Origin: Candidatus Binatia bacterium
Lineage (GTDB): Bacteria > Desulfobacterota > Binatia > UBA9968
Reading direction: 5' to 3'
DNA length: 64,000 bases
NCBI GenBank assembly: GCA_036504975.1
Contig: DASXUF010000173.1
Coordinates: 2,745-66,744 of the forward strand
The notes below the pieces were generated by a model. It did not search any database. It saw only the letters and a list, made by a program, of their open reading frames with translations, and had not been told where the DNA came from. Below, piece after piece: positions 14,288 to 64,000 of this stretch. A program made the translations under genes and the position numbers. Every line of letters starts with the position of its first letter. Within the stretch, counting starts at the first letter, position 1.

Positions 14288-14318
14288 TGGTGCGCCCGCC
14301 GAGATTCGAACTCGGACT
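14288..14318. repeat. direct repeat copy 1: 3'-terminal 31 nt of tRNA-Arg(CCG) incl. CCA (att-like)
   Basis: tggtgcgcccgccgagattcgaactcggact. The 28-nt core is identical to 15238-15265 and differs at one base from the 3' end of the intact tRNA at 22249-22279. No 5' tRNA half upstream. Confidence 0.7.
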
Positions 14319-14338
14319 CGCCTTCATTGAGGTGCGAT

Positions 14339-15237: not shown

Positions 15238-15267
15238 TGCGCCCGCCGAGATTCGAACTCGGACTTA
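15238..15267. repeat. direct repeat copy 2: 3'-terminal 30 nt of tRNA-Arg(CCG) (att-like)
   Basis: tgcgcccgccgagattcgaactcggactta; identical core to copy 1. Shares the ggactTA extension with the intact tRNA-Arg at 22249-22323. Confidence 0.7.
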
Positions 15268-15374
15268 AGATCACTAACTAAGAATCAGCTTACTTACCCG
15301 AGGCGCATTTCAAAACTTGACGAGTCAGTCGTCAAATGTCATGATTATCGTCGGAAAGGCGCCAAGCGTGGCAA

Positions 15375-22248: not shown

Positions 22249-22323
22249 TGGTGCGCCCGCCGAGAGTCGAACTCGGACTTAAGGCTTCGGAGGCCTTCGT
22301 GATATCCGTTTCACTACGGGCGC
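22249..22323 (-). tRNA. tRNA-Arg (anticodon CCG)
   Basis: Reverse complement folds as a 75-nt cloverleaf. Acceptor GCGCCCG/CGGGCGC, D-stem GTGA/TCAC, anticodon stem AAGGC/GCCTT with loop CTCCGAA (CCG), T-arm CCGAG-TTCGACT-CTCGG. CCA encoded. Confidence 0.85.
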
Positions 22324-41064: not shown

Positions 41065-41108
41065 GGCGGTTGCGGCTTCGTCGTTTCGACCGCCGGCGCG
41101 CTAAATCT

Positions 41109-43796: not shown

Positions 43797-43820
43797 CAAA
43801 GCGTCGCGCTGGAAAAGATT

Positions 43821-46800: not shown

Positions 46801-47276
46801 TCCAGAGCGACGGCAAAAAGCTGAAGCAGATTCTGGAGAACTTGATCCACAACGCCATCAAGTTCACCGACCAGGGCTGTGTGACCGTCTCGGCGAAGAT
46901 AACAGAAGGCGGTATGCGGAAAGCAGTAAGCAGCGGGCACGAAGCTGAGATTCTGCCTGCTGCCGACCGCCTGCTGGCTACGGGGAGGCGGTGGCTGGAG
47001 TTGCGGGTTGCGGACACCGGGCGCGGGATTCCGGCGCAAGCGCTGTCCATTATTTTCGAAAAATTTCGCCAGGCGGACAGCTCCGAGACCCGGCGCTACG
47101 GCGGCGTCGGCCTGGGACTTTATATCGTCAAGAACTTTACCGAACTCCTCGGCGGCGCGGTCGAGGTCGAGACCGAGGAAGGAAAGGGATCGATCTTTAC
47201 TGTGACGATTCCTTGCACGGTCTCGTCTTCGGCTGCGGAACGCCCGGAGGAATCCAAAAGGCTGAAATCCGCGTGA
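43821..47276 (+). CDS. cytoplasmic sensor histidine kinase with five tandem GAF domains + HisKA + HATPase_c (HK3)
   Basis: 1151 aa; same module grammar as HK1. H-box LSVMSHELRTPLNVVMGYTAMI. Confidence 0.85.
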   Translation: MKSKKKTAALAERIAERNSDLSALAREQQALNMIAQAVSQSLHRDELLEIALDKVLEVTGRERGTIRLKDSVTGDVKLSAHRGFSEEEIAELRRNMPHRISEQIFASGQPLVVNDRAELRNTQSLLPQSRSVAWIPIKARQKVVGVLGVSAGRPIPFRQREVDLLQAVGSVIGVAIENARLFEETGRRARELAALHAVTAAVSGSFDLDQILLKGLDAVLEVTEMEVGYIQFLDGHPPRLLLKAHRGMSELFLTRFQGRVRPGGKTEQIIATRQPLVLENIPADHVGKFSGERVTAAAWVPITSKDKVIGVLTISTKTRPTFPLAHLPLLASIGNTLGVALENARLFEETKQRAHEQAVLSAVAMAMSESLQLDELLRIALDRVLEVTGREQGYIRLKDPVTGNLTLAAHRGVSENYLQTLLHGRTPGGKSDRVFKSGEPLVINDPEGFQLKEQTRREGNRSFVWVPLKVGGKTVGIVNVSTSRPLPFQPREVELLKAIGNVIGVALENARLFNETERSLERIRALREIDQAITTSLDLRTILDVLMEKIDLVLPYAAATVRLHNKESGFLEPVACRNLDEEEWKKAQWKGGRGIANVVFEKRAPLIIRNAQADARVLDAAFYRKHSLTSYVGVPLRVKDEVLGVLGFYTKEEHEFTGEEVEFLMTLAGQAAIAIHKSQLYEEARTREKEMQETNRMLSALHAVAAAASQSLDLDRVVRAAIEKITEILGFDATQIHVYNGRSDELVMRAYYEMDPKLFVSVRAFKVGQGIVGKVAESGQPLIFEDVLTDPLYQSLSRTKASYQLGYHFFAVFPIRGKLRSLGTLACTGIDSRRLSSGEVQLLEAMADQIAVAIENTGLYEQLTQKVDELQFKTEELQRANKVKDEFLSVMSHELRTPLNVVMGYTAMIKDQMVGAVNPEQSQILEKLMSRVRSQLDMVNSILQATQIQAATVALEREEVKLKDLLDGLKSDHSANLTKPLTLIWDYPRDLPAIQSDGKKLKQILENLIHNAIKFTDQGCVTVSAKITEGGMRKAVSSGHEAEILPAADRLLATGRRWLELRVADTGRGIPAQALSIIFEKFRQADSSETRRYGGVGLGLYIVKNFTELLGGAVEVETEEGKGSIFTVTIPCTVSSSAAERPEESKRLKSA

Positions 47277-47286
47277 TGGTGGACGA

Positions 47287-49530
47287 ATGAATAGATTTTC
47301 CTTCTCGGGGCTCCGCGTCCGCTTGATCCTGCTGGTTCTTTTGGCCGTGATCCCGGCCTTGGGACTGATCTTCTACGCGGCCTCTGCGCCGGACGAGCAT
47401 AACATGGCGCACAGTCTGGTTTGGCTCATGATCGTTTTGCTGTTGACCCTGGCCGGCGCTTGGTGGGGCGGTAACTGGCTGATCGTCGGGCAATTGAAGA
47501 GATTGATGGAAGCGACTGAAAAGCTCGGCACCGGTGATCTCGACGCGCGGGTTGCCGTTTCGAACGGCGACGGCGAGCTGCAAAAACTTGCCCGAGGGTT
47601 CAATCAAATGGCCGAAGGCCTGCAACGTCGCGACGCCGAGACGAAGCTGGCGCAAAGCGAGCTCAAGCGGCTGCTGCGGCAGAGCACGGCGCTGCGCGAG
47701 ATCAACCTCGCCGTCACCTCGAGTCTGGATTTACGCGCGGTATTGGGGGTCTTGATGGAGAAAATCCAGATCCTGCTTCCTTACGCCGTGCTTCTCGTCT
47801 GGCTCAGGAACCGCGAGACCGGAGAACTGGAGCGGACGGCTTGCTGGAACATCGATGAAGCCGACTGGAAGCGGCGGAAGAACAAGGACGCGCCGCCGAT
47901 TATCAAAGCGGCGATTGAAAATCAGAGTCCGGTTTCCGTCCTCGACGTGCCCACCGATCCCCGGACCGAGAATCCGGAGTTCTACCGCCGGAACGGCGTG
48001 GTCTCCTATCTCGGAGTCCCCCTGATCGTCAAAGGCGAGGCGCTGGGGGTTTTGGCCTTTCTGACACGCGAGCGGCACGAATTCACCGCCGAGGAGGTAG
48101 AGTTCTTGTCCTCCCTGGCGGGCCAGGCGGCGGTGGCGATCCATAACTCTCAGCTTCACGAGCAGAGCAAAAGACAGGCGGTCGAGCTCGAGAAAGCGAA
48201 CAAGGATTTAAGTCGAAAGGAAGCGATCCAGGCGCTGCTCAAGGAGCTAAGCCAGGACATCGCGTCTCAGGACGTGGGAAGCTTGCTTAAAAAGCTCACC
48301 GACAAAGTGTGCGAGTTCTTCAAAGTGGACATCGCCGACGTGCGCATCATCGACAACGGCGTGCCGCGCATCCTCGGCGTCTCCGGCGTCGACGAAGAGA
48401 AGATGCGGCTCGGCAGCACCGGCAGCGGCAGAGGCGCATCGGGATGGATCGTCGCAAACCGCAGACCGCTCGCGATAGCGGACTTGACGAAAGTAAAAAA
48501 TCCTCCGATCGGCCGGACGACGCGCCGCATCGGCATCCACGGCTATCTTGCCGTGCCGTTTTTTTCCCGCAGCGGAGAAGTCCTGGGCGTTCTCCGGGCG
48601 TTGACCTACCGGCCGAGAGAGTTTCTCCAGGAGGAAATAGATCTGTTGCAGCAGATGACCAACGGCGCCGCCATCGCGTTGGAAAACGCCCGGCTTCTGG
48701 AGCAGACCCAGACCCAGGCGGCCGAGCTCAGGCAGGCGAACAAGGTCAAGAACGAGTTTCTGGGCTTCGTGTCGCACGAGCTGAGGACGCCGGTGAACGT
48801 CATCATGGGTTATGCGGCGATCCTGCAAAGCAAGATGCTGGGCGAGATCAACGCCGAGCAGGACAACGCGCTGGAAAAAATGAGCGTCAATTCGAAAGAG
48901 CTGCTGAGCATGATCGAACTGCTTTTGGAGGCGACCAAGATCGAGGCCGGCGCCGCGGCGGTGGAGATCGCGGAAGTCAATTTGTCCGATTTTCTCGAGG
49001 ATCTAAAATCCGCCTACTCCATTCCGTTGAAGAAGCAGATACGTCTGGATTGGGATTGGCCCAAGAACTTTCCCGTTATAAAAACCGACCGCGAGAAGCT
49101 GAGACACATCCTGCTGAACGTCATCGGCAACGCGGTCAAATATACCGAGCAGGGCAGCGTCGGCGTTTCGGCGCGCTATCTGGTCGAACAGGGGCGGGTC
49201 GAGTTCGAAGTCACGGACACCGGGATCGGCATTCCGAAAGAGGAGCTGCCGCGCATCTTCGAGATGTTCTCTCAAGTCCGCAGCGCCCGGTCCAAGTCTT
49301 CCGGCGGAGTGGGCCTCGGCCTTCACATCGTCAAGAAGTTTACCGAGCTGCTCGGCGGAGACATCCGCGTGACGAGCGAAGAGGGCAAAGGATCGACGTT
49401 TGCGATAAGGTTGCCCACCGGCGGCCAGGCCGGGCAGGCGCCCGACCGTCAGGACTTTCGCGCGGATGAATCTTCGGCTGCGCGAGAAAAAGAAAGCGCC
49501 GAGCGTCCGGTCCCGGCGGGGGATTCTTGA
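47287..49530 (+). CDS. membrane sensor histidine kinase: 2 TM + HAMP + 2 GAF + HisKA + HATPase_c (HK4)
   Basis: 747 aa. Two hydrophobic helices, HAMP (GDLDARVAVSNGDGELQKLARGFNQMAEGL), H-box FVSHELRTPVNVIMGYAAIL. Confidence 0.85.
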   Translation: MNRFSFSGLRVRLILLVLLAVIPALGLIFYAASAPDEHNMAHSLVWLMIVLLLTLAGAWWGGNWLIVGQLKRLMEATEKLGTGDLDARVAVSNGDGELQKLARGFNQMAEGLQRRDAETKLAQSELKRLLRQSTALREINLAVTSSLDLRAVLGVLMEKIQILLPYAVLLVWLRNRETGELERTACWNIDEADWKRRKNKDAPPIIKAAIENQSPVSVLDVPTDPRTENPEFYRRNGVVSYLGVPLIVKGEALGVLAFLTRERHEFTAEEVEFLSSLAGQAAVAIHNSQLHEQSKRQAVELEKANKDLSRKEAIQALLKELSQDIASQDVGSLLKKLTDKVCEFFKVDIADVRIIDNGVPRILGVSGVDEEKMRLGSTGSGRGASGWIVANRRPLAIADLTKVKNPPIGRTTRRIGIHGYLAVPFFSRSGEVLGVLRALTYRPREFLQEEIDLLQQMTNGAAIALENARLLEQTQTQAAELRQANKVKNEFLGFVSHELRTPVNVIMGYAAILQSKMLGEINAEQDNALEKMSVNSKELLSMIELLLEATKIEAGAAAVEIAEVNLSDFLEDLKSAYSIPLKKQIRLDWDWPKNFPVIKTDREKLRHILLNVIGNAVKYTEQGSVGVSARYLVEQGRVEFEVTDTGIGIPKEELPRIFEMFSQVRSARSKSSGGVGLGLHIVKKFTELLGGDIRVTSEEGKGSTFAIRLPTGGQAGQAPDRQDFRADESSAAREKESAERPVPAGDS

Positions 49531-49545
49531 GGGAGGCCTCAGAGT

Positions 49546-51642
49546 TTGATGGAAGTTAACGCTCTCGTTCGAATCAGTCGAGTCATGCGACGCGCTCTCG
49601 GACAGGCGCGTGCCGCGGTCGCCTACCTGATTTACGAGCACACGATTCTCCTGCTGACCGTCATGTTTTGCGCCGCAGGGGCGGCGACGCTGTGGCATTT
49701 GTCCCGCCTGTCGGCAACTCTAGTCGAGTCCGGAGCGTTACAGGGAACCGTGCTCTATTCCGGATCTCTCACCGAGCTGCGCACCTTCTATGGCTCCGAG
49801 GTCGTGGATAGGGTCAGGTCGCGCGGCATCGAGGCCACCCACGACTACGCCGGCAAACAAGGCGCAATCCCGATTCCGGCGACATTCACGATCGAGTTCG
49901 GCAAGCACATGGGCGCGATCAGCCCCGGGATGCAGATCCGCCTCTACAGCGATTATCCTTTTCCGTTCAGGAAAGACGGCGGTCCGAGAGATGGTTTCGA
50001 GCGCGACGCTCTTCTGGAGCTGAGAAAAAATCCCGGCCAACCTTATTTTCGTTTTGAAGATTTCCAGGGCAGAGCGTCCTTGCGCTATGCCACCGCGGTC
50101 CAACTGCGCGCCGGGTGCGTCTCCTGCCACAACACTCATCCCGAGAGCCCCAAGATCGATTGGCAGGTCGGCGACGTAAGAGGAGTCCAGGAGATTATTC
50201 GCCCCTTGGACAGCGCCATCGCCGAGACCCGCTCGGGCCTCCAAAGCACCTTTGTCCTTCTCGGCACGATGGGACTTTTGGGAGTGGGCGGCCTAGCCAT
50301 GGTGATCGGCAGGATGCGCCGCACCTCGGTGGAGTTGCAGCAGCGGGTCGCCGAGCGCACCGCCGCCGAGGCCCGTTTGGCGGCGTTACATGAAATCAAT
50401 CTGGCCGCGACCTCGACCCTGGATCTGCCTAACGTCTTGAGAGTGTTGTTGGAAAAAATCGGCGTCTTCCTACCCTATGCCGCGGCCACCGTCCGTTTAT
50501 TCAATGAAGCGAGCGGTCTCCTGGAGCCGATTGCCTGCCTGAACCTCGACGAAGAGGAATGGAAGGAAGAGCAATGGAAAGGCGGCCGCGGATTGCCGAA
50601 CGTGATCTTCAAAAATAGGGTGCCTTGGATGGTGCGGAATATTCAAACCGACTCGCGCGTCCAGGACCCCGATTTTTTTCGCCGGCAGGGTTTGGTTTCC
50701 TATCTGGGAGTTCCTTTGATCGTGAAAGACGAGATCTTCGGGGTCATTTCCTTTTATACGAAAAAAGAGCACGATTTCAGCGACGACGAAATCGAATTTC
50801 TCAACACGCTCGTCGGACAGGCGGCCATCGCGATCAATAATTCGCAGCTCTTCGAGCAGACCCGAAGCCAGGCGGTCGCGATGGAGAAATCAAACAAGGT
50901 CAAGGACGAATTTTTGAGCGTCATGTCGCATGAGCTGAGAACTCCGTTGAATGTGGTCATCGGCTATACCGGACTGATGAAAGAAGGAATATTGGGCGCC
51001 GTCAGCGAAGAGCAAACCAAAGCCTTGGACAAAATCGGCGATCGGGCCAAGGACCAATTGACCATGATCGACAGTATTTTGTTCGCTACTTCGGTCGAGA
51101 CCCGCGAGATCAAGGCGGAGTCCCAGGAGTTGAACCTGGCGGCGTTTCTCGACGATCTCAAGTCAAGCTATGAAGTTTCGGTGGAAACGCGAATCCGTCT
51201 GAATTGGATCTACGCGGCGGATTTGCCGGTGGTCCAGTTAGACGTGGCAAAGCTGAGACACGTCCTGCAAAATCTCATCAATAATGCACTCAAGTTCACC
51301 CGCGAGGGCGAGGTGGCGGTATCGGCGAGAATGATGGGAAACGGACAGCACGCAGGGGGCAATGGGTATCCGGCATTTATAGAATTCAAGGTGGCCGATA
51401 CCGGTATCGGCATTGCGGAGTCGCATGTGCAGGTCATCTTCGACAAGTTCCGCCAGGTGGACAGCTCCGAGACGAGACCGTACGGAGGCGTCGGCATCGG
51501 CCTTTACATCGTGAAAAAATTCACCGAGATGCTCGGCGGCACCGTCGATGTCGAGAGCAAGCCCGGCGAAGGATCGACGTTTACGGTCCGAGTGCCTTGC
51601 GCCGTCGCCAATGTTAAGGGTCAAGGCGCCGATTGGATATAA
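49546..51642 (+). CDS. sensor histidine kinase with periplasmic DUF3365 (CXXCH, putative heme-c) domain + GAF + HisKA + HATPase_c (HK5)
   Basis: 698 aa. N-terminal TM, periplasmic domain containing GCVSCHNTHPESPKIDW (CXXCH), second TM, then the conserved C-terminal GAF and kinase core. Confidence 0.85.
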   Translation: MMEVNALVRISRVMRRALGQARAAVAYLIYEHTILLLTVMFCAAGAATLWHLSRLSATLVESGALQGTVLYSGSLTELRTFYGSEVVDRVRSRGIEATHDYAGKQGAIPIPATFTIEFGKHMGAISPGMQIRLYSDYPFPFRKDGGPRDGFERDALLELRKNPGQPYFRFEDFQGRASLRYATAVQLRAGCVSCHNTHPESPKIDWQVGDVRGVQEIIRPLDSAIAETRSGLQSTFVLLGTMGLLGVGGLAMVIGRMRRTSVELQQRVAERTAAEARLAALHEINLAATSTLDLPNVLRVLLEKIGVFLPYAAATVRLFNEASGLLEPIACLNLDEEEWKEEQWKGGRGLPNVIFKNRVPWMVRNIQTDSRVQDPDFFRRQGLVSYLGVPLIVKDEIFGVISFYTKKEHDFSDDEIEFLNTLVGQAAIAINNSQLFEQTRSQAVAMEKSNKVKDEFLSVMSHELRTPLNVVIGYTGLMKEGILGAVSEEQTKALDKIGDRAKDQLTMIDSILFATSVETREIKAESQELNLAAFLDDLKSSYEVSVETRIRLNWIYAADLPVVQLDVAKLRHVLQNLINNALKFTREGEVAVSARMMGNGQHAGGNGYPAFIEFKVADTGIGIAESHVQVIFDKFRQVDSSETRPYGGVGIGLYIVKKFTEMLGGTVDVESKPGEGSTFTVRVPCAVANVKGQGADWI

Positions 51643-55533: not shown

Positions 55534-56307
55534 TTACTCTGAGGCTTCAGTGAAGCTAACCGACAATTCTTTTACTCTGAAAACGGGAATAGTTGTCGGC
55601 AGTCGATACCAGCTCAAAGTTGTCTCAATCAAACGTTCTTCGCCGGGAGTTAGAACAAACTGTGTTACCCGACTCTCGTGGAGTTTCCAGCCTGATGAAT
55701 CCGATAGAAGCGCGTTTCGAGGTTGATGCCCGCTCGATGTAACAAGTTGCGTTTTCACGGCACGATCACACCCATTCTGGTAGACAGTCGCCTTCTTCAG
55801 GAGATTATTATCCGAATGTGCGTACCAAATCGTTAGGTCACGTTTGGCTTGAATACATCTTTTAGCCGTCGCCGTGGCGTTAAGAAGAGCAGGCGTATTA
55901 TGCAATCGTTCAGCTTCCCTTTCGTCCTGACGATGGATGCGTTGTCCTTGCGACACGGCTGATCTCGTATCGACCTCTGTAGCCAAATATAGTTCGTTGC
56001 CATCATATATTTGCAATAAATAGATTCCACGTTCAAGCCCTTTGAATTCGTAACGTCCATTGTGAGAAGTACTGGAATGTGCCGTAGAACCGGCAACAGC
56101 GGGTAAAGCCTGAAGTCTCACGGTTAGATTAGGACGACCACCGGGATTTTTTTCGTTGTCTATATTTCTCGCGTTGGTTTCATCCGCAACGGAGATCCTC
56201 AGCTCTTCCCCGAGATGGCGGATCTCCAGCGCGATAAAATGGGACGAGATAACCGGCAACCCTCCATCGCTTGTGAAATGGGTGAACGTGGCGAAACAGA
56301 ATGACAT
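55534..56307 (-). CDS. hypothetical protein with carboxypeptidase-regulatory-like beta-sandwich segment, in locally low-GC DNA
   Basis: 257 aa. NGRYEFKGLERGIYLLQIY resembles a CarboxypepD_reg-like fold. Region is visibly more AT-rich than the surrounding ~62% GC. Confidence 0.4.
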   Translation of the reverse strand: MSFCFATFTHFTSDGGLPVISSHFIALEIRHLGEELRISVADETNARNIDNEKNPGGRPNLTVRLQALPAVAGSTAHSSTSHNGRYEFKGLERGIYLLQIYDGNELYLATEVDTRSAVSQGQRIHRQDEREAERLHNTPALLNATATAKRCIQAKRDLTIWYAHSDNNLLKKATVYQNGCDRAVKTQLVTSSGHQPRNALLSDSSGWKLHESRVTQFVLTPGEERLIETTLSWYRLPTTIPVFRVKELSVSFTEASE

Positions 56308-56562
56308 CCGAAACAGGTTGCCAGTGACAGCAGGAACAACTTTGTCAGCGTGCTGAACAGCCTGCCGCCGCGATCATTTGTCCTGATGCAACGGAATATC
56401 ATCTCAGATCCGCCTCAACTCCCTCCTGTGATACTAATGGCTGCCGCCTTGGATGGCCAAAACCGAGCCCCTGCTTGTTAGATAGTTAGCGGGGGACTGA
56501 TTTCTAACCTCTTCGTAGAGATACAGTCAAGCCCCTTAGGAAACTGAGTCGGGATTATTTCG

Positions 56563-56722
56563 TCCCAAAAATTTTATGGAAAAGCTTAACGTAGCGGTCG
56601 AAGTCGGCATAGACCTCGTCGGGAGTGAAAACTGCGGTGAATCCCTGCGCCAGTTTGGGGGTATCGGGCGAGACGTCGGTGCGGTCGGGCACGCGCCGCT
56701 GGGCGCGGATACTGTCTGGCCG
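56563..56722. repeat. gene-remnant repeat copy 1 (C-terminal ~50 codons of an unidentified gene, minus strand)
   Basis: ~88% identical over ~160 nt to 57548-57710. Minus-strand translation ...IRAQRRVPDRTDVSPDTPKLAQGFTAVFTPDEVYADFDRYVKLFHKIFGTK*. Confidence 0.6.
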
Positions 56723-56830
56723 GCCTAAAAATAAAACGGACAGGCAGACAAGCCGATTGGATTCCTCATTTGCCTCGAAGATTTCAATCTGATACGCATG
56801 TCAACGTTTGAGACGAAGGAGGCAGCGGAT

Positions 56831-57175
56831 ATGAGATTAGCCAAAGCAATCCCTTTGATGTTGATGACGCTGACGTTGCCGGCCTTGATCGGTTGTGGAA
56901 CCATGGGCGGCAAAACTCCTCCCCCAGAACAGCCTGTGGCTCGGCCGATGGGCGTCGAGACGCCTGAGGACGCAGCTCTTAGCAAAGCGGTCAAGCAACG
57001 ACTTTCAGCGGAGAAAGCCGTCAACCTATCGCCCGTGGTCGTGGAAGCGAGAAAAGGGACGGTCTACCTGAGCGGGCGCGTGTCGTCTTTAGATGCGCGG
57101 GAGCAAGCGACCAAAATTGCATGGCAGGTAGCGGGCGTTCAAACGGTTTTGAATCATCTCGAGGTTGGAGAATAG
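56831..57175 (+). CDS. BON-domain lipoprotein
   Basis: Start MRLAKAIPLMLMTLTLPALIGC (lipobox LIGC) after GAAGGAGG. BON domain (VVVEARKGTVYLSGRVSSLDAREQATKIAWQVAGVQTV). Confidence 0.7.
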   Translation: MRLAKAIPLMLMTLTLPALIGCGTMGGKTPPPEQPVARPMGVETPEDAALSKAVKQRLSAEKAVNLSPVVVEARKGTVYLSGRVSSLDAREQATKIAWQVAGVQTVLNHLEVGE

Positions 57176-57547
57176 CAAGTCTACGAGGTCATCACTGAGT
57201 CATCATTTCGACGCCAAAGCCAGCCCTGGTCGGCCCGCAGGGTCAGACTTTCTCAGACTGTTGAAAAAGTCCTACTCGTGCTTCGACAAGCTCAGCACGA
57301 ACGGAAATTACTCAACGATTCCAATACTAGGTCCGTTCGCCCTGAGACTCTCGAAGGGTGAACGGGGGTTTTTCAACAGTCTGTTCTATTCTAAAGAATC
57401 TTCCTCATGTGAGTTGTTTTACACCGCGATCGATTCGATCCGCTGGAGCGGAGAGTGAAAGCCGTTCGGCTTGGAGGTCTTCTTTCAGACGTTGCTGGCG
57501 CGTGGTTTCGGTCCAACAACCCCGTGCCCCTGCGGATTCTCAGGCCG

Positions 57548-57710
57548 ATTATTTCGTCCTAAAAATATTCTGGAAAAGCTTCACGTAGCGGTCAAAGTCG
57601 GCGTAGGCCTCATCGGGAGTGAAAACCGCGGTGAACCCTTGCGCCGGTTTGGGAGGATCGGGCAGGACATCGGTGCGGTCGGGCACGCGCCGCTGCGCGC
57701 GGATAATCTC
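57548..57710. repeat. gene-remnant repeat copy 2
   Basis: Minus-strand translation ...IRAQRRVPDRTDVLPDPPKPAQGFTAVFTPDEAYADFDRYVKLFQNIFRTK*. Paralogous to 56563-56722. No intact parent gene in the window. Confidence 0.6.
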
Positions 57711-57825
57711 CTACCCGGCTTTTGACAGCACGAAATCGATGAACAATTTTCCCGCACTGGGGCGGCGCGCTTGACTCGAAATCAAGTGTTGCGATTGCGC
57801 GTTAACCCCCTGGATGCCAACTTCC

Positions 57826-57849
57826 ATGTTTCCGGAATTCCGGAAACGT
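57826..57849. promoter_or_regulatory. palindromic operator copy A (core GTTTCCGGAATTCCGGAAAC, outer arms imperfect)
   Basis: Located 28 nt downstream of the ArsR stop. Followed by the conserved GTGAGATATAACG tail shared with copies B and D. Confidence 0.55.
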
Positions 57850-57876
57850 GAGATATAACGTCATCGTTGTCTGTCT

Positions 57877-58179
57877 CTAGCGCCGTACCGGAGAAGCCGC
57901 TTTCACAAAGCGCGAAAGCGCGGTTAGAACACTCTTAACCTCACTCGGATGTTTGAGCCGGTACTGATTCCGCCTGCCATCCATCTGGTAGCGCACAACC
58001 TCGGCCACCCGCAGCACGCCGAGCACGGTGCTGACCCGCTGCACGCTCCTGCCGAGCGCGCGGGCGATTGCGCCGACGCTCAGCTCTTTGTTCTCCGCCA
58101 GCAGTTGAACGACGGCGAAGGCCAGCGGATTCCCGAGCAAGCGACAGAGCCGCGATTGTCTGTAGCTCCCTTCCTCCAC
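57877..58179 (-). CDS. ArsR/SmtB-family transcriptional regulator (no canonical metal-binding Cys pair)
   Basis: 100 aa. Winged HTH (LSVGAIARALGRSVQRVSTVLGVLRVAEVVRYQ). GTG start 14 nt downstream of palindrome B. Confidence 0.8.
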   Translation of the reverse strand: MEEGSYRQSRLCRLLGNPLAFAVVQLLAENKELSVGAIARALGRSVQRVSTVLGVLRVAEVVRYQMDGRRNQYRLKHPSEVKSVLTALSRFVKAASPVRR

Positions 58180-58192
58180 GCCGGCTTATGTA

Positions 58193-58220
58193 TCACGTTT
58201 CCGGAATTCCGGAAACGTGA
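58193..58220. promoter_or_regulatory. palindromic operator copy B: perfect 28-bp palindrome TCACGTTTCCGGAATTCCGGAAACGTGA
   Basis: Self-complementary over all 28 nt. Immediately upstream of arsR (minus) and in the divergent region toward the bicupin gene (plus). Confidence 0.65.
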
Positions 58221-58632
58221 GATGTAACGTAGTCGCTGCCCCCCTACCGGACCTCGGACGCGGACTGTACAAACGGGAAAGAACGCTGAGAACACTTCAA
58301 TTACCGGCTCAATATCACCGACCAACCTAAGTCCACCGCCTCGCCAACTGCTCGTATCGAACGGATTTACGGATATCGCTAGTTGGTCGGAAATCCCGCT
58401 GCCGCCGCCGGCAATAATTGCGGTGCGATCTTCCAAGGAAAAGCGACAGAGATCAATGCAAAGAGGAAGATGGGCCGGTGTGGAGAAGACGGCTTGCCTT
58501 CTTTCTCCAAATGGTGTCTTCTCTTTTGCGAGTGGCTATTTTTTTTAAACGGATCCAGCGCGGATCATTCCGCGGTGGCTCCACTCAGCCAAATCTCAAC
58601 TGAGTCGGGACAGATCAGGAGGCACGGAACCC

Positions 58633-59757
58633 ATGGAAGCACGGAGCGAGGATTTCCCGCGCGAGCGGCTCACGCCCAAGACCGCTTACGAAAAGTGGCA
58701 GGAGGAAGAGAAGATACCGATCCTCAAGGCTTTCTACATCGAAGATGTCCTCAAAGTGGAGCTTGAACCATGGGAAAGGGTGGGGGGGAAAGGCGCGTTT
58801 CTCAACATGGCGGGATCCGAGAATACCAACGGCGCGTATCTCTGCGAAATACCTCCGGGCAAAGGGCTAAAGCCGCAAAGGCATCTTTACGAAGAGATGA
58901 TCTATGTCTTGAGCGGCCGGGGAGGGGCCACGATATGCAACGAGGGAGGAGCCAAGCAGACCTTCGAGTGGCAAGCCGGAAGTCTCTTCAGTCCGCCGCT
59001 CAATTGTTGGTTCCAGCTCTTCAACGGCTCGGGCGGCGAGCCCGCCAGGTTTCTCTCCGTGACTACCGCGCCGCTGGCGATGAACTTGTTTCATAACGCG
59101 CATTTCATCTTCCACTCCGATTATAATTTTACCGACCGTTTCGACGGGCAGACAGGCTATTTCACCGAAAAGAAGGAGCCGGCGCGAACTCATGTCTGGG
59201 AAACGAACTTCGTTTCCAATCTCGGCACGTTCGAGCCGCGGAGCTCGCTCGAGGCTACGGGCAAAGTGGAGAAGCGCGGGGTGGGCATTCGTCGGGCCAT
59301 CTTTGAGATGGCCAGCAATGTCCTTTGCGCCCATATCTCCGAATGGAAGCCCGGGGTTTACAAAAAGGCCCACCGTCACGGCCCCGGCGCCAATATTTTG
59401 ATCCTTGCGGGGCGCGGCTATTCGCTCCTGTGGCAGGAGGGAAGACCGCGCCAAAGAGTCGACTGGCGTCCCGGGAGCCTCTTTGTCCCGCCGCCCCAAT
59501 GGTTCCATCAGCATTTCAATACTTCCCCCACTCCGGTCAGGTTCGTCGCTTTACGCTGGAGCAATAAATTCAGTCTGGGAAGCGTCTTCGGATACGAGGG
59601 CTTCAACACCGACGTCAAGGAGGGGGGCAACCAGATCGAATGGGAGGACCAAGGCCCGGAGATCCATGAACTTTTCGTCAAGGAATGCGCCAAGGCGGGA
59701 GCGCAGGTAGCGCCTGAATTACAACAGATATTCGATCAAGGAAAAGCGCGAGGGTGA
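58633..59757 (+). CDS. bicupin protein, gentisate/hydroxynaphthoate 1,2-dioxygenase-like
   Basis: 374 aa with two cupin modules. The second carries His-rich motifs (KKAHRHGPGANILI...PPPQWFHQHFN) typical of ring-cleaving bicupin dioxygenases. Confidence 0.55.
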   Translation: MEARSEDFPRERLTPKTAYEKWQEEEKIPILKAFYIEDVLKVELEPWERVGGKGAFLNMAGSENTNGAYLCEIPPGKGLKPQRHLYEEMIYVLSGRGGATICNEGGAKQTFEWQAGSLFSPPLNCWFQLFNGSGGEPARFLSVTTAPLAMNLFHNAHFIFHSDYNFTDRFDGQTGYFTEKKEPARTHVWETNFVSNLGTFEPRSSLEATGKVEKRGVGIRRAIFEMASNVLCAHISEWKPGVYKKAHRHGPGANILILAGRGYSLLWQEGRPRQRVDWRPGSLFVPPPQWFHQHFNTSPTPVRFVALRWSNKFSLGSVFGYEGFNTDVKEGGNQIEWEDQGPEIHELFVKECAKAGAQVAPELQQIFDQGKARG

Positions 59758-59779
59758 GGGTCTGCAGGGAACAAACGAC

Positions 59780-60928
59780 ATGAAGAACGATGCCTTGTCT
59801 ATTCTAGCCCGCTGCGCCGCCATCGGACTCTTTTGTTACGGCCTTGTTCCGTTCGGAAAAGGCGTATCGCCGGCGCTCGCGGCGGAGATAAAACCGGACT
59901 GGCGCGCGGAGTGGGAGAGGACGCTGGCGGCGGCGAAGAAGGAAGGCGAGGTTTCTATATACGGACCTTCGAACCGCGACGAGCAAAACGCATTGGTCGA
60001 CGCTTTTCAAAAAGCCTACCCGAATATCAGGGTCAAGTACGTCACGGGAAGACTCAGCGAGCTGGCCAGCAGGATCATGGCGGAGCGGCGGGCGGAAAAA
60101 TTTATCGTCGACATTCTCCTCGGCTCCACCACGACCCCCAACCGGACGCTCAAGCCGGCGGGAGTTTTCCAGCCGATCCACAGCGCTCTGATCCTGCCGG
60201 AGATCTTGGACGCCTCCGCATGGTTCAAAAAGAAACTATGGTTCGGCGACAACGAGGAGCGCTTTTTGATACTCTGGCGCGGCGGTTCCTCGGGCTCTTT
60301 CATGATCAACACCAATCTGGCAAAGCGCGAAGAATTCAGCTCCTATTGGGACCTGCTGAACCCGAAGTGGAAAGGGAAGATTACGGCGCAAGACCCGCGA
60401 GTGACCGGAAGAGGCTACAGCACCTCGGTCTTTTTATACTATGCGAAGGACTACGGCCCCGACTACTTGAAGCGGCTCTTGGGTGAGATGGAAATTGTGC
60501 TCTCGCGCGACAGCCACCAGATCGTCGATTGGCTCGGTCAGGGTAAATTCGCCGTCGCTCTGTTCGTCGGGAGCCAGGGGGAAGGCGACGTCGCGATCCG
60601 ACAGGGCTTGCCGATCACTGAAATCGAGCCCACCAAGGGAAGCGGCGCGTTGGGAACGCCGCGAACCGTTACCTTTGTCAATGGCGCGCCTCATCCCAAC
60701 GCGGCCAAGATATACATCAACTGGCTCCTGTCGCGCGAGGGGCAGATCGCTTACCAGAAAGCGACCGGGACCAATTCCTTAAGAACGGATATACCCAAGA
60801 ACGACGTCAATCCCGCGGAGATGTTGCGGGATGACCGCGACTACATACCGCAGAACCTGGAGAAGTACGAAGAGGGCGCGCGGCCGGGCCTGAAGCAGGT
60901 TTTCGACGCGGTTCTGCCGCAGCGCTAA
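59780..60928 (+). CDS. extracellular solute-binding protein family 1 (Fe3+-type ABC SBP) with signal peptide
   Basis: 382 aa. Signal peptide ILARCAAIGLFCYGLVPFG. Motifs KWKGKITAQDP and HPNAAKIYINWLLS. Confidence 0.75.
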   Translation: MKNDALSILARCAAIGLFCYGLVPFGKGVSPALAAEIKPDWRAEWERTLAAAKKEGEVSIYGPSNRDEQNALVDAFQKAYPNIRVKYVTGRLSELASRIMAERRAEKFIVDILLGSTTTPNRTLKPAGVFQPIHSALILPEILDASAWFKKKLWFGDNEERFLILWRGGSSGSFMINTNLAKREEFSSYWDLLNPKWKGKITAQDPRVTGRGYSTSVFLYYAKDYGPDYLKRLLGEMEIVLSRDSHQIVDWLGQGKFAVALFVGSQGEGDVAIRQGLPITEIEPTKGSGALGTPRTVTFVNGAPHPNAAKIYINWLLSREGQIAYQKATGTNSLRTDIPKNDVNPAEMLRDDRDYIPQNLEKYEEGARPGLKQVFDAVLPQR

Positions 60929-60944
60929 ATGGCTGGAGGTTACG

Positions 60945-61655
60945 ATGGACTGGCTACAAGAATGCCGACAAGAGCTGGACCGCATGGCCAACGAAGTATT
61001 CGAGACGCCGGAGCTGAAGCGCTATTTTTCCAGCCCTCTCACCTGGGCCGGCTATCATGTGAAAAGGACCATGTGGAGCCGCTACGCCAATCCCACACAC
61101 CGGGATTGTTGGGCCTATGTCATGGGAGCCGCTCCGATAGACGTGAAGCAGGTGATCTGGCGCCACGAAGAGGATGAGCTGATTTTTGACGAGCGGCTCG
61201 GGCGAGCGCACGTGGCCTGGGATAAAGAGGAGGAAGAGGAAAAATCTCGAGACAAAGGCTTCGAGGTCCCCGAGGCTCCGCCTGGAGTGCGGGTCGCTTG
61301 TTGGGGGCGGGTTCATATTGCAAAGAACAGCCCATGGCTGGAAGGATTGGCCGCCTCGCACATCATTGAGCGCCTCAATAATCCTAAAGTCGTCAAAGAG
61401 GGGCTGACGCTTTCCCGCCGGGGAGTGAACCAGGTGATGAACGATCTTAAAGTTCCTTTTGACAAGTTAAGTCCCAGCGCACGGGTGCATCTGGACGCGG
61501 ACGAAGAGCACAGCGCTCTTACGTGGAGCGTATTCGAGCGGCACGTCAAGGGCGAGGAGGCATTCAGTCAGTCGATCCAGGGCGCAAAGAGGTCGTTGGA
61601 TTGTTTTAGGGTTTATGCCGACGCGGTGGGGAATCTGATGGCCAGTGTTTCGTGA
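60945..61655 (+). CDS. heme-oxygenase-like fold protein (TenA/PqqC/CADD superfamily, iron-containing redox enzyme family)
   Basis: 236 aa, helical. Paired acidic/His residues (HEEDE...H, E..H) are consistent with di-metal HO-like oxidases. Family-level only. Confidence 0.45.
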   Translation: MDWLQECRQELDRMANEVFETPELKRYFSSPLTWAGYHVKRTMWSRYANPTHRDCWAYVMGAAPIDVKQVIWRHEEDELIFDERLGRAHVAWDKEEEEEKSRDKGFEVPEAPPGVRVACWGRVHIAKNSPWLEGLAASHIIERLNNPKVVKEGLTLSRRGVNQVMNDLKVPFDKLSPSARVHLDADEEHSALTWSVFERHVKGEEAFSQSIQGAKRSLDCFRVYADAVGNLMASVS

Positions 61656-61710
61656 CAATCGCTACCGTGATCGAAGAAATCGTTCAACGAACGTCACGGT
61701 CTTAGTGAAG

Positions 61711-61832
61711 CAGCAGTTGAACGACGGCGAAGGCCAGCGGATTCCCGAGCAAGCGACAGAGACGCGATTGTCTGTAGCTCCCTTCCTCCACGGCGGCTTA
61801 CGTATCACGTTTCCGGAATTCCGGAAACGTGA
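61711..61832. repeat. duplicated arsR 5' end + operator module (copy of 58099-58220), ending in palindrome copy C (61805-61832)
   Basis: ~122 nt with 3-4 mismatches versus 58099-58220. Contains a degenerate arsR N-terminus (GTG EEGSYRQSRLCRLLGNPLAFAVVQLLLH*) and a perfect 28-bp palindrome. Confidence 0.7.
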
Positions 61833-61871
61833 ATACAATCGGCTTGACGTGTCGCGTGCCGTGGATTCCCG

Positions 61872-62096
61872 CTAGCGCGGGATCGCCGGCTTGTCGGAAT
61901 AGCCGTAGCCGCGGAGATCGATATTGATGACTTTGAAGAACGCGGAGAAGTGCGCCGCCTGATGGATGAACATGCGCCGGTCGAACGGGTTGGCATGAAC
62001 CATGATCAGCGGGTAACCCTCGCCTGAGGTCTCGTAATAAATCTTGACCCCGTTTCTCGCGCAGTAAGGCATGGTTTCCTCCCGGAGTAGCGGCAC
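61872..62096 (-). pseudogene. alpha/beta-hydrolase fold protein, N-terminal 74-aa fragment only
   Basis: MPYCARNGVKIYYETSGEGYPLIMVHANPFDRRMFIHQ...INIDLRGYGYSDKP is the canonical start of an ~280-aa alpha/beta hydrolase. The ORF stops after 74 aa exactly where the duplicated arsR/operator module begins. Confidence 0.6.
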
Positions 62097-62103
62097 AGAC
62101 GGC

Positions 62104-63108
62104 TCACTGAATCGCGGCGGCTTTCAGGTATCTCAAGTCGACGAAGCGCTCCGCCGCCGGGACCGGCGTCGGGATCACACCCGCCTCGCCCATCAGAGCC
62201 AGCACGCGATTAAATGCCGCGAGATCCAGTTCGCCCTTCTTCGGCAAGACGTTTTTGCCGGGCTCGAGATAAGGCGCGAAAATCTCGCGCGCGACATCGT
62301 CGGAAATTTTAAGATATTCCTTGATGATGTTCGTGACCTCGTCGCGATTCTTGGGGTCGTTGATGAACATGTAGGAAGCGGCGAACGCGCGCGTGAACCG
62401 GACCAGAGCGTCCTGGTTCTTCTCTCCCCAGGCGCGGCGCGTCATGTCGACGTTGAAAATCAGATCCGTGCCCGCCTCATAGGTGAAGCTGAGTCTGGGA
62501 AAGCCCTGCTTGACCGCGCCCAGGTCTTCCGGCTGGCCCATCGGCACCGCGGCGCATTCTCCCGCTTTGAGACAGTCGAAGCGGGCGGCGGTGCCGACGA
62601 CGGCCTTGGCGCGAAAATCCGCCGCCTTGATGCCTTTGGCGGCAAGCAGCCTCAACGTCGACAACGTGATCGTATCGCCCGTCGTCGACAGACCCAGCAC
62701 CTTCTCTTTCAAATCGGCAAAGCTCTTGATCTCGGGTCTCACGATCAGGCTGTAGACGGGATTGGTCGTTTGGGCGAGGATCGCCACCGCGTCGGAGCCC
62801 TTGAGCGCCGCCTGGATCAGGTAGGGCGTGGCGTTCCTGCCCGCGTCGATCTCGCCCTTGTCGAGCGCTGCGACGATCCTGTCCGTGCCGCCGGGAATCG
62901 GAACCACGACTAGATTGATCCCCTCACGGACGAAGAAACCCTTGCGCTCGGCAACGGTCAGCGGGAGCGACGACAGGCTGCCGGCCGAGGCAGCGTTTTG
63001 CCCGTAGCGCAAGGTGAACGGCTCCGCGGCGAGCGCCGCCTCGATCATGCCTGCGCAGAATAGCGCGGCGAGGGAGAGAATGCGCCGAATCATGATGGCC
63101 TTCGTCAT
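62104..63108 (-). CDS. NMT1/THI5-like ABC substrate-binding protein with signal peptide
   Basis: 334 aa. Signal peptide MIRRILSLAALFCAGMIEAALA. GGGGAGG Shine-Dalgarno upstream of ATG 63108. Palindrome copy D lies ~60 nt upstream. Confidence 0.7.
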   Translation of the reverse strand: MTKAIMIRRILSLAALFCAGMIEAALAAEPFTLRYGQNAASAGSLSSLPLTVAERKGFFVREGINLVVVPIPGGTDRIVAALDKGEIDAGRNATPYLIQAALKGSDAVAILAQTTNPVYSLIVRPEIKSFADLKEKVLGLSTTGDTITLSTLRLLAAKGIKAADFRAKAVVGTAARFDCLKAGECAAVPMGQPEDLGAVKQGFPRLSFTYEAGTDLIFNVDMTRRAWGEKNQDALVRFTRAFAASYMFINDPKNRDEVTNIIKEYLKISDDVAREIFAPYLEPGKNVLPKKGELDLAAFNRVLALMGEAGVIPTPVPAAERFVDLRYLKAAAIQ

Positions 63109-63168
63109 AGACTGCCTCCCCTGGCACGTCTCAATTTTTATATCTTCGACTCCACGCCGGCTTATGTA

Positions 63169-63196
63169 TCACGTTTCCGGAATTCCGGAAACGTGA
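63169..63196. promoter_or_regulatory. palindromic operator copy D: perfect 28-bp palindrome TCACGTTTCCGGAATTCCGGAAACGTGA
   Basis: In the divergent intergenic region between the NMT1-like SBP (minus) and the reductase-like gene (plus). Flanked by the same CTCCACGCCGGCTTATGTA and GTGAGATATAACG arms as copy B. Confidence 0.65.
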
Positions 63197-63298
63197 GATA
63201 TAACGCATCCGTAATCTCAACCGACTTCGCGACAGCGTAGTTGACTCAACACCCGCCCGTGCAGTAGGGGTATGGTTAACCCTAAAAGGAACTCTGTC

Positions 63299-64000
63299 AT
63301 GACGAATCATGCTGTCTCAAATCGAAGTCACCGCGCGTCTCACCGCATCGTCGCAATCGCCGCGTTAATTCTTGCGTTAGGAACTTTGCCGCGGACGGTT
63401 TTTGCCCAGGCGGCCACCGGCGGCTCTGCCGTCAAGATCGGGATCGTCGGCTCCGGCAATTTGGGCGGCGCGGTGGGAGCGCTGTGGGTGAAGAGCGGCC
63501 ATCCGGTGCTGTTCTCTTCCCGGCATCCCGAAGAACTCAAAAAACTCGTCGACGGTCTCGGACCGTTGGCGCGCGCCGGCACGGTGCGCGAAGCGCTCGC
63601 GTTCGTCGACGTCGTTTTCGTCGCGGTGCCCTACGCCGCCTACCCGCAGCTCGGCAAGGATTACGCGCGGGAGTTTGCCGGCAAGATTGTCATCGACGCC
63701 GGCAACGCGGTGCTCGCGCGCGATGGCGAGATCGCCAAAGAAGCGCGCGAGAACGGCATCGGCATCACGTCGGCGAAATATCTCGCCGGGGCGCGCATCG
63801 TTCGCGCGTTCAACACGATGAACTTTCGCCGGCTCGCGAGCAACGCCAACCGACCCGAAGGCCGCATCGCCATCCCCATGGCCGGCGATGACAAGGAGGC
63901 GCTAGCGGTGGCGTCGGCCCTGGTGCGGGACGCGGGCTTCGATCCAGTGATTATCGGCCCGCTCGAACGCGCGAAGGACTTTGCGCAAGGCGCGCCTCTA
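63299..64000 (+). CDS. NADP-binding Rossmann protein of the F420-dependent NADP oxidoreductase / pyrroline-5-carboxylate-reductase-like family, with N-terminal signal-like peptide (partial, continues beyond window)
   Basis: Manual translation: MTNHAVSNRSHRASHRIVAIAALILALGTLPRTVFAQAATGGSAVKIGIVGSGNLGGAVGALWVKSGHPV... GIVGSGNLGG is the dinucleotide-binding motif. No stop before 64000. Confidence 0.6.
   Translation, partial: MTNHAVSNRSHRASHRIVAIAALILALGTLPRTVFAQAATGGSAVKIGIVGSGNLGGAVGALWVKSGHPVLFSSRHPEELKKLVDGLGPLARAGTVREALAFVDVVFVAVPYAAYPQLGKDYAREFAGKIVIDAGNAVLARDGEIAKEARENGIGITSAKYLAGARIVRAFNTMNFRRLASNANRPEGRIAIPMAGDDKEALAVASALVRDAGFDPVIIGPLERAKDFAQGAPL

Follow-up and report, generated by a model that had tools for sequence, protein, structure and literature searches.

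A 64,000-nt stretch of contig DASXUF010000173.1 from a Candidatus Binatia bacterium (hereafter the window) contains, within 5.4 kb close to its right end, four copies of a long palindrome surrounding a small gene for an ArsR/SmtB-like winged-helix regulator (Table 1). An earlier note on this DNA had spoken of four copies of a perfect palindrome, one of them an outer-arm variant, and had taken them for the operators of a compact, uncharacterised regulon. A pattern search of the window found the 28-mer (TCACGTTTCCGGAATTCCGGAAACGTGA) in three exact copies, named here B, C and D, whereas the fourth one, copy A (CCATGTTT...), shows two mismatches. The 20-nt core GTTTCCGGAATTCCGGAAAC is nevertheless exact in copies A, B, C and D (4/4), and the symmetry of the 28-mer is 13-2-13. 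Such a repetition is indeed far beyond chance, as had been stated, since 100 dinucleotide-preserving shuffles gave a mean count of 0.00 and a maximum of 0 for the 28-mer. Even a 14-nt half-site has no occurrence outside the four copies in the 64 kb, and an independent contig of the Joint Genome Institute (L128), which is 100% identical to positions 59275-64000 and reaches 2.8 kb further right, holds no extra copies in that extension. Palindromes A and B bracket the regulator gene, with their starts 369 bp apart. Copy B adjoins the start of the gene, as the earlier note had it, at a distance from the GTG codon at 58179 of 13 nt and not 14 nt. A full-text literature search with the core sequence retrieved no paper containing it.

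Table 1. Palindromes, regulator-derived segments and neighbouring genes in the window
Feature	Position	Strand	Remarks
Palindrome A	57824..57851	none	2 mismatches, left outer arm; 25 nt past the regulator stop codon
Conserved 3′ arm (GATATAACGTCATCGTTGTCTGTCT)	57852..57876	-	Between palindrome A and the stop codon; from alignment, arm cluster 1
Intact 100-aa ArsR/SmtB-like winged-helix gene	57877..58179	-	GTG start; one conserved Cys (C12)
5′ arm	58180..58192	-	Minus-strand reading TGATACATA-AGCCGGC-GTG; promoter-like, without Shine-Dalgarno sequence
Palindrome B	58193..58220	none	Exact; presumed autoregulatory operator, 13 nt from the GTG start
3′ remnant of a second, decayed regulator copy	58221..58300	-	Abuts palindrome B; from arm clustering and alignment
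Bicupin	58633-59757	+	Starts 412 nt from copy B, beyond the regulator stump
Family-1 solute-binding protein	59780-60928	+	Between palindromes B and C
236-aa protein	60945-61655	+	Between palindromes B and C
Regulator 5′ stump (27 codons) and 5′ arm	61711..61804	-	98% identical to 58099-58192; tblastn match 61791-61711
Palindrome C	61805..61832	none	Exact
Truncated alpha/beta-hydrolase	61872..62096	-	N-terminal 74 aa only; Abhydrolase_1 profile positions 1-44
NMT1/SsuA-like solute-binding protein	62104..63108	-	Promoter-arm side of palindrome D
Regulator 5′ arm and two codons	63138..63168	-	Repeat family D13; upstream of the solute-binding protein gene
Palindrome D	63169..63196	none	Exact; divergent region between the solute-binding protein and reductase genes
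3′-arm-like tail (GATATAACGCATCCGTAATCTC)	63197..63222	+	Homologous to the post-stop regulator arm; compare L005_5737, L082
Secreted NADP/F420-type oxidoreductase-like protein	63299..64000, running to 64057 (per L128)	+	252 aa

The arms of the palindromes tie all of these copies to the regulator gene. A common 5′ arm (CTCCACGCCGGCTTATGTA) had already been recognised at three copies, and it is found at B, C and D, with two substitutions in the case of copy C (CTCCACGGCGGCTTACGTA). This arm is the reverse complement of TACATAAGCCGGC-GTG-GAG, that is, of a short untranslated stretch followed by the first two codons of the regulator, so that the CTCCAC within the arm corresponds to the regulator's own GTG GAG. 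The 3′ tail GTGAGAT[A/G]TAACG, which had been assigned to all copies, follows A, B and D; copy C lacks the GAGATATAACG tail and continues as GTGAATACAATCG. The tail itself (GAGATATAACG...) belongs to a conserved 25-nt stretch running from the stop codon of the regulator to the downstream site. As for the remaining arms, the left one of copy A is of the ACTTCCAT or 'GGAAGT' type that is seen at solo sites, and the right one of copy C (GTGAATACAATCGG...) is the outer flank of the intact regulator gene in a close relative, L129.

Longer pieces of the regulator gene were found as well. Positions 61711-61832 (122 nt) duplicate, at 98% identity, the 5′ end of the gene with its 5′ arm and palindrome (repeat family D15). 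To the right of copy B, a stretch of 80 nt aligns with the 3′ ends of regulator genes from other genomes and resembles the L005 allele more than the resident gene. At copy D, the stump forms a mini-ORF (open reading frame) of five codons (GTG GAG TCG AAG ATA TAA) and is followed by a Shine-Dalgarno sequence and then by the start codon (ATG) of the gene for the NMT1-type binding protein. The earlier note had overlooked the 122-nt duplicate, the 3′ stump at 58221-58300 and the coding nature of CTCCAC; its proposal that a promoter-operator piece had been copied around the locus is borne out. As the extra sites carry stumps of the regulator gene, they arose by copying of the regulator locus, and the fourfold repetition would therefore be the product of the duplication and decay of a regulator unit, and not of operators that arose in front of target genes. 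The window thus holds one intact unit (A-gene-B) and what is left of at least two or three more.

Regarding the protein, the only Pfam model above its cut-off is PF25212 HVO_A0114 (30 vs 27.6), with HTH_20 (24.5 bits, cut-off 27), HTH_5 (16.5, cut-off 22) and MarR_2 below threshold, and the NCBIfam model for ArsR/SmtB, NF033788, matched at E 5.9e-13 with 48.4 bits, under its curated cut-off of 55. A profile of 23 homologs retrieved SmtB (3.9e-5) from the Protein Data Bank, and also ArsR, CadC, Rv0081, BigR, NolR, HlyU and PagR. The predicted secondary structure follows the order a1-a2-a3-a4-b1-b2-a5 (DSSP H-H-H-H-E-E-H), in a model whose predicted local distance difference test (pLDDT) score is only 51 and which derives from a 23-sequence alignment. 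The metal-binding Cys pair is missing, as the earlier note had observed: the regulator has a single, nearly invariant Cys (C12), with neither a CXC motif nor an alpha5 site, the positions aligned to D104/H106 of SmtB read K-H-P, and H117/E120 have no equivalents. The alpha3N CXC and the alpha5 Asp/His/His/Glu sites define metal-sensing subgroups and not the whole ArsR/SmtB family, and the regulator is a divergent, non-metal member of this fold. PADLOC returned weak Csa3 and CasR matches (26-34 bits), which we take for generic ArsR-type winged-helix similarity and not for a sign of a role in CRISPR (clustered regularly interspaced short palindromic repeats) systems. ArsR-like COG profiles figure among the Csa3 models.

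The association of site and gene recurs in other genomes. The exact 28-mer was detected in six metagenome-assembled genomes (MAGs) labelled as Binatia (two), Acidobacteriota, Acidiferrales, Syntrophobacteraceae and Deltaproteobacteria, and the 20-nt core in more than 120 soil metagenome contigs, a number that is a lower bound. Viral contigs gave 0 matches to the core, and neither the regulator protein nor the DNA of the unit had a match among PLSDB plasmids. A protein word-index search yielded about 500 homologs, of which the 120 listed are all 99-113 aa long and 75-93% identical, and only 477 proteins reached E 1e-3 in a library of 1.84 billion representative proteins. The recurrent unit has a site-gene-site organization of about 400 bp, with a start-to-start spacing of 348-369 bp in L004, L005, L024, L027, L050, L093 and L103, and with a second site after the stop codon also in L129, L130, L131 and L132; the position of copy A after the stop codon is repeated in L004, L005, L027, L050, L103 and L129. 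Five loci (L127, L129, L130, L131 and L132) were fetched through the protein and not through the site. In 5/5 of them, 17 nt separate the core of the family palindrome from the start codon (13 nt in the case of the 28-mer), and four also carry a second palindrome after the stop codon. This position beside the start codon is fixed in all homologs examined.

In the sample, there are about ten sites for every intact gene. Additional sites of the family are found at a density of about 1 per 10 kb up to 8 kb away from a site, and of 0.43 per 10 kb at 8-16 kb, with none at 16-64 kb, a range covered by the window alone. As the rate drops beyond 8 kb, the sites cluster in islands rather than being evenly spread as REP (repetitive extragenic palindromic) elements are. 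Regarding a generic REP element, which the earlier note had considered as the alternative to an operator, the palindrome is widely dispersed in metagenomes, yet confined to the regulator locus within the window.

Sequence variation in the palindromes is symmetric. In the protein-fetched loci, 16-20 of the 20 core positions are identical, and the commonest variant there, TCGG...CCGA, is a symmetric change. The sites follow the pattern GTTT-N4-AATT-N4'-AAAC, where N4 is CCGG, TCGG, CGAG, TGAG, CGGG or TCGC, each with its exact complement opposite, and several of these N4 classes recur at independent loci. In L053, a frameshifted paralog (47% identical) lies between two sites of the CGAG class, with the symmetric variant GTTTCGAGAATTCTCGAAAC. 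Paralogs at the 44-48% identity level carry, at the corresponding positions, palindromes of a different sequence. Around P0163 (44% identical), ACTTCGGGAATACCCGAAGT occurs 13 nt before the start codon and a second time shortly after the stop codon, with 4 copies in 1.5 kb. P0157 has four palindrome copies within 650 nt. In the case of P0165 (48% identical), the palindrome is a perfect one of 30 nt (TGCACGTTTGCACAATTGTGCAAACGTGCA) and lies about 185 nt beyond the stop codon. Less regular cases are P0181, with an imperfect palindrome (84% complementary, 25-nt arms) about 20 nt upstream of its start, and P0167, with a 16-nt palindrome upstream. A cluster of about four cognate palindromes around the gene is, then, a trait of the family, repeated with different sequences.

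Two further observations concern the arrangement of these sites. Those of P0157 in L133 (83, 227, 374 and 728) include upstream ones spaced 144 and 147 bp apart, with no gene remnants between them, and this regular spacing may reflect cooperative or phased binding. Moreover, in L070 (1401/1520), L034 (1670/1790), L022 and L053, sites of two N4 classes (for example GTTTTGAGAATTCTCAAAAC together with the canonical core) lie about 119 nt apart with a conserved spacer.

Across 14 full-length regulator genes, the median ratio of nonsynonymous to synonymous substitutions (dN/dS) is 0.10 with a median dS of 1.33, values that point to old genes under purifying selection. Because its position is fixed, because the palindromes covary with the paralogs, and because the core is near-invariant despite near-saturated synonymous sites, it is very probable that the palindrome serves the adjacent ArsR-like protein as its cognate site. 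Of these lines of evidence, the paralog-specific palindromes speak most strongly, at the computational level, for the pairing of protein and site. SmtB/ArsR proteins recognise inverted repeats of the 12-2-12 type in or close to the promoters under their control (PMC8790569), and a 13-2-13 palindrome beside the start codon fits this habit.

A perfect inverted repeat could also act as a nucleic-acid hairpin, either a terminator, an mRNA-stabilising 3′ hairpin or a replication-linked cruciform, with a secondary association to the winged-helix protein. Single-strand folding is strong (-13.5 kcal/mol, z -5.6, for the 28-mer; -19 kcal/mol, z -8.3, for the 36-mer), the symmetric N4 variants keep the pairing, and many sites follow gene ends. 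An intrinsic terminator was nonetheless dropped, since none of the four sites shows a T-run or a terminator-like call, and an Rfam search of positions 56000-64000 at a permissive threshold found no known RNA family, its sole match being RsmY at chance level (E 0.55). Besides, the variation is confined to one 4-nt block in discrete classes instead of drifting freely, with compensation, along the stem, and a hairpin explains neither the fixed position over the regulator promoter region nor the covariation with the recognition helix of the paralogs. We consider this explanation very improbable.

The regulator gene decays often. Among the 150 best representatives of clusters at 50% identity, only 34 have the full length, and 63 retain an N- or C-terminal part that continues into at least 15 residues of unrelated sequence, and frameshifted or truncated copies are present in L028, L051, L053, L063, L067, L086, L087, L098, L101 and L109. 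The stumps end at profile positions of about 38-79 and start at about 17-62. A breakpoint hotspot inside the regulator gene was rejected, since such spread-out ends fit random truncation and not a site-specific cut. One junction is common to two diverged contigs, L008 (1154-1200) and L103 (2161-2210), in which the first 8 codons of the regulator are fused to a LivF-like fragment. Judged by eye, this fragment looks like an internal piece of a LivF-type ABC ATPase (…EGVT(I/V)LLVEQ…), and the junction would be an old, retained stump.

The flanks of the unit, in turn, are heavily rearranged. The 5′ arm of the regulator is joined through the palindrome to at least 13 clusters of partner flanks and to 9 singletons, 2-3 different partners are likewise seen for arm clusters without relation to the regulator, and the unit occurs in at least 20 flanking contexts. 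Locus L070 (site-gene-site) and L034 (a solo site with the same flanks) are the occupied and empty versions of one locus, which in L093 and L028 holds only a 28-aa regulator stump. The most informative comparison is provided by L129 and L130, where the regulator is 92% identical and the DNA 93-95% identical to the window, with the same four palindromes in a different block order: the block BON...A-gene-B lies between the reductase and PrpD genes there, and to the left of the bicupin in the window. Homology between the window and L129 breaks off precisely with the final base of palindrome B, and 7 nt beyond palindrome A. Each of the two arrangements is found in two independent assemblies, which argues against assembly artefacts. 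In the same region, a 164-nt direct repeat (88% identical, family D12; 56553-56716 and 57547-57710) flanks the BON-domain gene. It reads like a minus-strand C-terminal coding fragment with no Pfam match, copies of it also lie at two rearrangement junctions in L129, and it may be a second recombination-prone repeat.

Shuffled flanks and an occupied/empty pair would equally be expected from a selfish or mobile repeat of the REP/REPIN or dif-module kind, in which the winged-helix protein would be the element's own site-binding factor and any effect on host genes incidental. A gene flanked by its own repeats, with gene and repeat subfamilies paired, is a hallmark of the systems formed by REPINs and their REP-associated tyrosine transposases (RAYTs) (PMC3337134). 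The excess of sites over intact genes, their location (about 93% are extragenic) and their clustering in accessory islands with toxin-antitoxin, restriction-modification, CRISPR-Cas and insertion sequence (IS) fragments agree with this idea, and the commonest solo form, a 36-bp ACTTCCAC-core-GTGGAAGT (49 sites have that arm type on both sides), is the expected leftover of recombination between the two sites of a unit. The 28-mer can even be parsed formally as 11-6-11, like dif sites (PMC6449649).

On the other hand, the flanked protein has a plain 100-aa ArsR-like fold without any catalytic domain, a Y1 transposase lies near only 1 of 126 loci, and integrases are not enriched. The other 58 kb of the window contain no copies, a density unlike that of REPs, and the many decayed gene copies differ from the single-copy RAYTs. 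The site is perfectly symmetric, without dif-like ATAA/TTAT motifs on inspection, and plasmids and viral contigs gave no matches. On this evidence, a selfish repeat is an unlikely explanation. The canonical members of each class were discarded separately. A REP/RAYT system was rejected, given that the flanked gene encodes no Y1 transposase and that the copies in the window do not have the density of such systems. Integron attC sites have the order R'' RYYYAAC ... R' GTTRRRY, an imperfect stem with extrahelical bases and an integron integrase; an attC site or a CALIN (cluster of attC sites lacking integrases) was rejected, since the GTTT...AAAC order is reversed, the stem is perfect and the 220 neighbouring proteins include no integrase. 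Membership in the dif/Xer sites was rejected too, because TCACGTTTCCG-GAATTC-CGGAAACGTGA is symmetric and lacks the ATAA/TTAT inner motifs, by inspection against PMC6449649. A recombinase-based mechanism as such is possible.

With respect to the genes around the sites, within 2.5 kb there are 220 non-redundant neighbours, which fall into 141 and 66 Pfam families (two batches), the commonest being the PIN toxin domain with only 6 proteins. Many sites belong to islands that also contain toxin-antitoxin pairs, genes for restriction-modification, IS fragments or cas genes. Among the individual cases, L015 contains an IS200-like Y1 transposase fragment (383-775, minus strand; Y1_Tnp, E 2.3e-6) 160 nt from a canonical palindrome, the single instance in the 126 loci. 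The P0163 paralog, in L134 (3001-6303) and L135 (823-4125), lies about 500 nt upstream of cas6-cas1-cas2-cas4, and resides in the MAG DATMAM01 (Candidatus Acidiferrales), in which a canonical 28-mer stands alone at L003. Beside one canonical site there is a protein with matches to the Cas3 HD and Cas3 C-terminal domains; for it, an 889-aa ORF in L094 is a guess only.

The orientation of these neighbours depends on the arm. The GTGATA arm, conserved throughout arm cluster 0, points to 19 gene starts and 2 gene ends. The NMT1-type binding-protein arrangement and the whole setting of copy D are repeated in L129 and L130, in L102 the ortholog of this binding protein starts directly at the regulator's own start position, and a site with the two arms of copy D separates a TctC receptor gene from a divergent glyoxalase gene in L037, L083 and L117. 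Copy C faces only the truncated hydrolase stump and the 3′ end of the 236-aa gene.

These neighbours bear on the reading of the earlier note, a compact regulon in which an ArsR-like repressor would respond to an organic or redox effector and control the enclosed genes together, as one catabolic or detoxification pathway. The operator-regulator relationship itself is well supported, the four sites are confined to the regulator locus in 64 kb plus 2.8 kb, and related genes (NMT1 binding protein, reductase, 236-aa protein, BON and PrpD) stay near the sites in L129 and L130. Copy D, the last one, does lie in a true divergent promoter region between the NMT1-like and reductase genes, as had been said, and the arrangement is kept in those two relatives; it is the only copy so placed. 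The idea of operators in front of a coherent catabolic gene set fails for the others: copy A follows the stop codon of the regulator, copy C meets no intact gene start, and the bicupin operon begins 412 nt away from copy B, behind a regulator stump. Moreover, the extra sites bear regulator stumps, gene order around the sites differs even at 93-95% identity, and neighbours elsewhere are heterogeneous, with toxin-antitoxin genes as the commonest. The alpha/beta hydrolase is truncated as described, with a match to Abhydrolase_1 positions 1-44 only. The 236-aa protein, called heme-oxygenase-like at first, has no family match in Pfam or NCBIfam; it is conserved beside palindrome C in L128 and L129. 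The bicupin, the family-1 solute-binding protein and the 236-aa protein are tied to the palindrome by position only. A coherent local regulon is borne out only in part, and we see the compact regulon as a rather unlikely reading of the locus.

The explanation that we favour, with a modest balance of probability on its side, is that of a cognate operator and an autoregulated regulator forming a unit that duplicates, moves and decays, and whose sites are hotspots of rearrangement. It takes as its basis the observed anatomy of the locus, the family-wide architecture, the covariation, the selection, the stumps, the diversity of contexts and the breakpoints. Dimers of the regulator would bind the 13-2-13 palindrome, and binding at the 5′ site would repress the regulator's own promoter. 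This promoter would lie in the GTGATACATA arm, and its transcript could be leaderless, because only a 7-nt gap separates the motif from the GTG codon and there is no Shine-Dalgarno sequence. The conserved 3′ site after the stop codon suggests either looping or a roadblock. The unit would duplicate, often in tandem (as at copy B of the window and in L103), pass between lineages and then become truncated, and the surviving promoter-operator stumps could come to drive neighbouring genes. In the case of copy D, the NMT1-type binding protein, and perhaps the reductase, were probably captured in this way under the control of the regulator. Identical palindromes of 28-36 bp are likely substrates for the exchange of flanks, and the spread of the unit could involve short-homology recombination, hairpin-stimulated recombination or an unlinked site-specific recombinase.

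Several points weigh against this explanation. No recombinase or transposase is consistently found near the sites, and a consensus scanner gave no sigma-70 promoter at any of the four copies. In other genomes, the palindrome lies after a gene end about as often as before a gene start: the (A/G)TGGAA(G/A)T ('GGAAGT') arm faces 58 gene ends vs 24 gene starts, and in 76 cases there is no gene up to 350 nt away, and the fully flanked sites located between convergent genes (20/79) equal the chance expectation. That many solo sites follow gene ends is not the behaviour of a promoter-operator. Between the extra palindromes upstream of the P0163 and P0157 paralogs there are no gene remnants, and not every extra site need be a decayed unit. 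There are also limits in the sample. Most metagenome sites came from the exact-core search, so their perfect conservation is partly ascertainment, and in the unbiased sample formed by the five protein-fetched loci and the secondary sites about 40% are exact. The contigs are short, with gene calls from a crude home-made caller based on GC3 and checked on the window, and the phylum labels of the six MAGs were taken from the MAG records, where binning errors are possible.

A bolder version of the favoured explanation would see here a new class of self-propagating regulator-operator modules, a non-transposase counterpart of REPIN-RAYT systems that spreads and is reshuffled at its palindromes between phyla, delivering repressible promoters to adjacent genes; we regard it as a tentative idea, possible but on the whole improbable. 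The same doubt applies to its corollary, that the protein and its perfect palindromes co-evolve in discrete specificity classes while being reshuffled in accessory islands. In any case, if the proposed account is true, the locus would exemplify a protein-DNA pair that is compact and conserved to an unusual degree in abundant, uncultured bacteria of soils (with Binatia, Acidobacteriota and Desulfobacterota-relative MAG labels), and a natural case of regulatory rewiring through the copy and decay of a regulator's own promoter-operator cassette. The N4 classes and the palindromes of the paralogs would then offer orthogonal repressor/palindrome pairs as possible synthetic parts, and the palindromes would mark rearrangement hotspots in accessory and defence islands. 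It would also serve as a warning that clustered operator repeats are not to be taken for a designed regulon.

Two other repeats of the window lie apart from this locus. A 32-nt sequence (TGCGCCCGCCGAGATTCGAACTCGGACT..., family D20) occurs at 14291-14322, 15238-15269 and 22252-22283. The third copy is inside a tRNA-Arg(CCG) gene (22249-22323, minus strand) and covers its lower-coordinate end, and the other two look like duplicated tRNA fragments, as left by tRNA-integrating elements. At about 36700-51600, 4-6 paralogous large genes form an array of segments that are 60-85% identical (families D1-D11 and D14), and their translated motifs suggest sensors of the GAF/histidine-kinase type.

Finally, the unit can be compared with several known systems. 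The ArsR/SmtB repressors of 12-2-12 repeats (SmtB, ZiaR, AztR/AzuR, CzrA and BigR) have the same small winged-helix fold and a long inverted repeat at their own promoter, with one or two repeats per operator-promoter region as in the present case. Unlike them, the regulator described here falls below the curated Pfam/NCBIfam cut-offs for the family and lacks the alpha3N/alpha5 residues; its perfect palindrome is near-invariant across phylum labels, with a second copy past the stop codon and dispersed solo sites and stumps, and no efflux or detoxification gene is co-transcribed with it. REPIN-RAYT systems share with it a short gene flanked by its extragenic palindromic repeats, the pairing of subfamilies, purifying selection and long persistence. 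They differ in that the present protein is only a DNA-binding domain, without HUH/Y1 catalytic motifs, and its site one continuous perfect palindrome with no GTAG or CGTC tag; whereas REPINs number in the hundreds and are evenly spread, these copies are of low density and clustered, and the gene decays often and is apparently transferred horizontally. The dif modules of Acinetobacter plasmids, bounded by the 28-bp XerC/XerD sites known as pdif, are also small modules (toxin-antitoxin ones among them) between conserved 28-bp sites, found in different contexts and orders in close relatives. In contrast, the site studied here is symmetric and does not resemble dif, it is apparently chromosomal in uncultured soil bacteria, with no plasmid matches, and the commonest module is the site-binding regulator itself. 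Last, operator pairs that loop DNA, such as lac O1/O2, gal OE/OI and deo, likewise consist of two identical sites a few hundred bp apart (348-369 bp here) that surround the promoter and gene under control; unlike in lac, gal and deo, looping would be purely conjectural in this family, whose second site lies beyond the gene's own stop codon and is conserved in paralogs of 44-47% identity.

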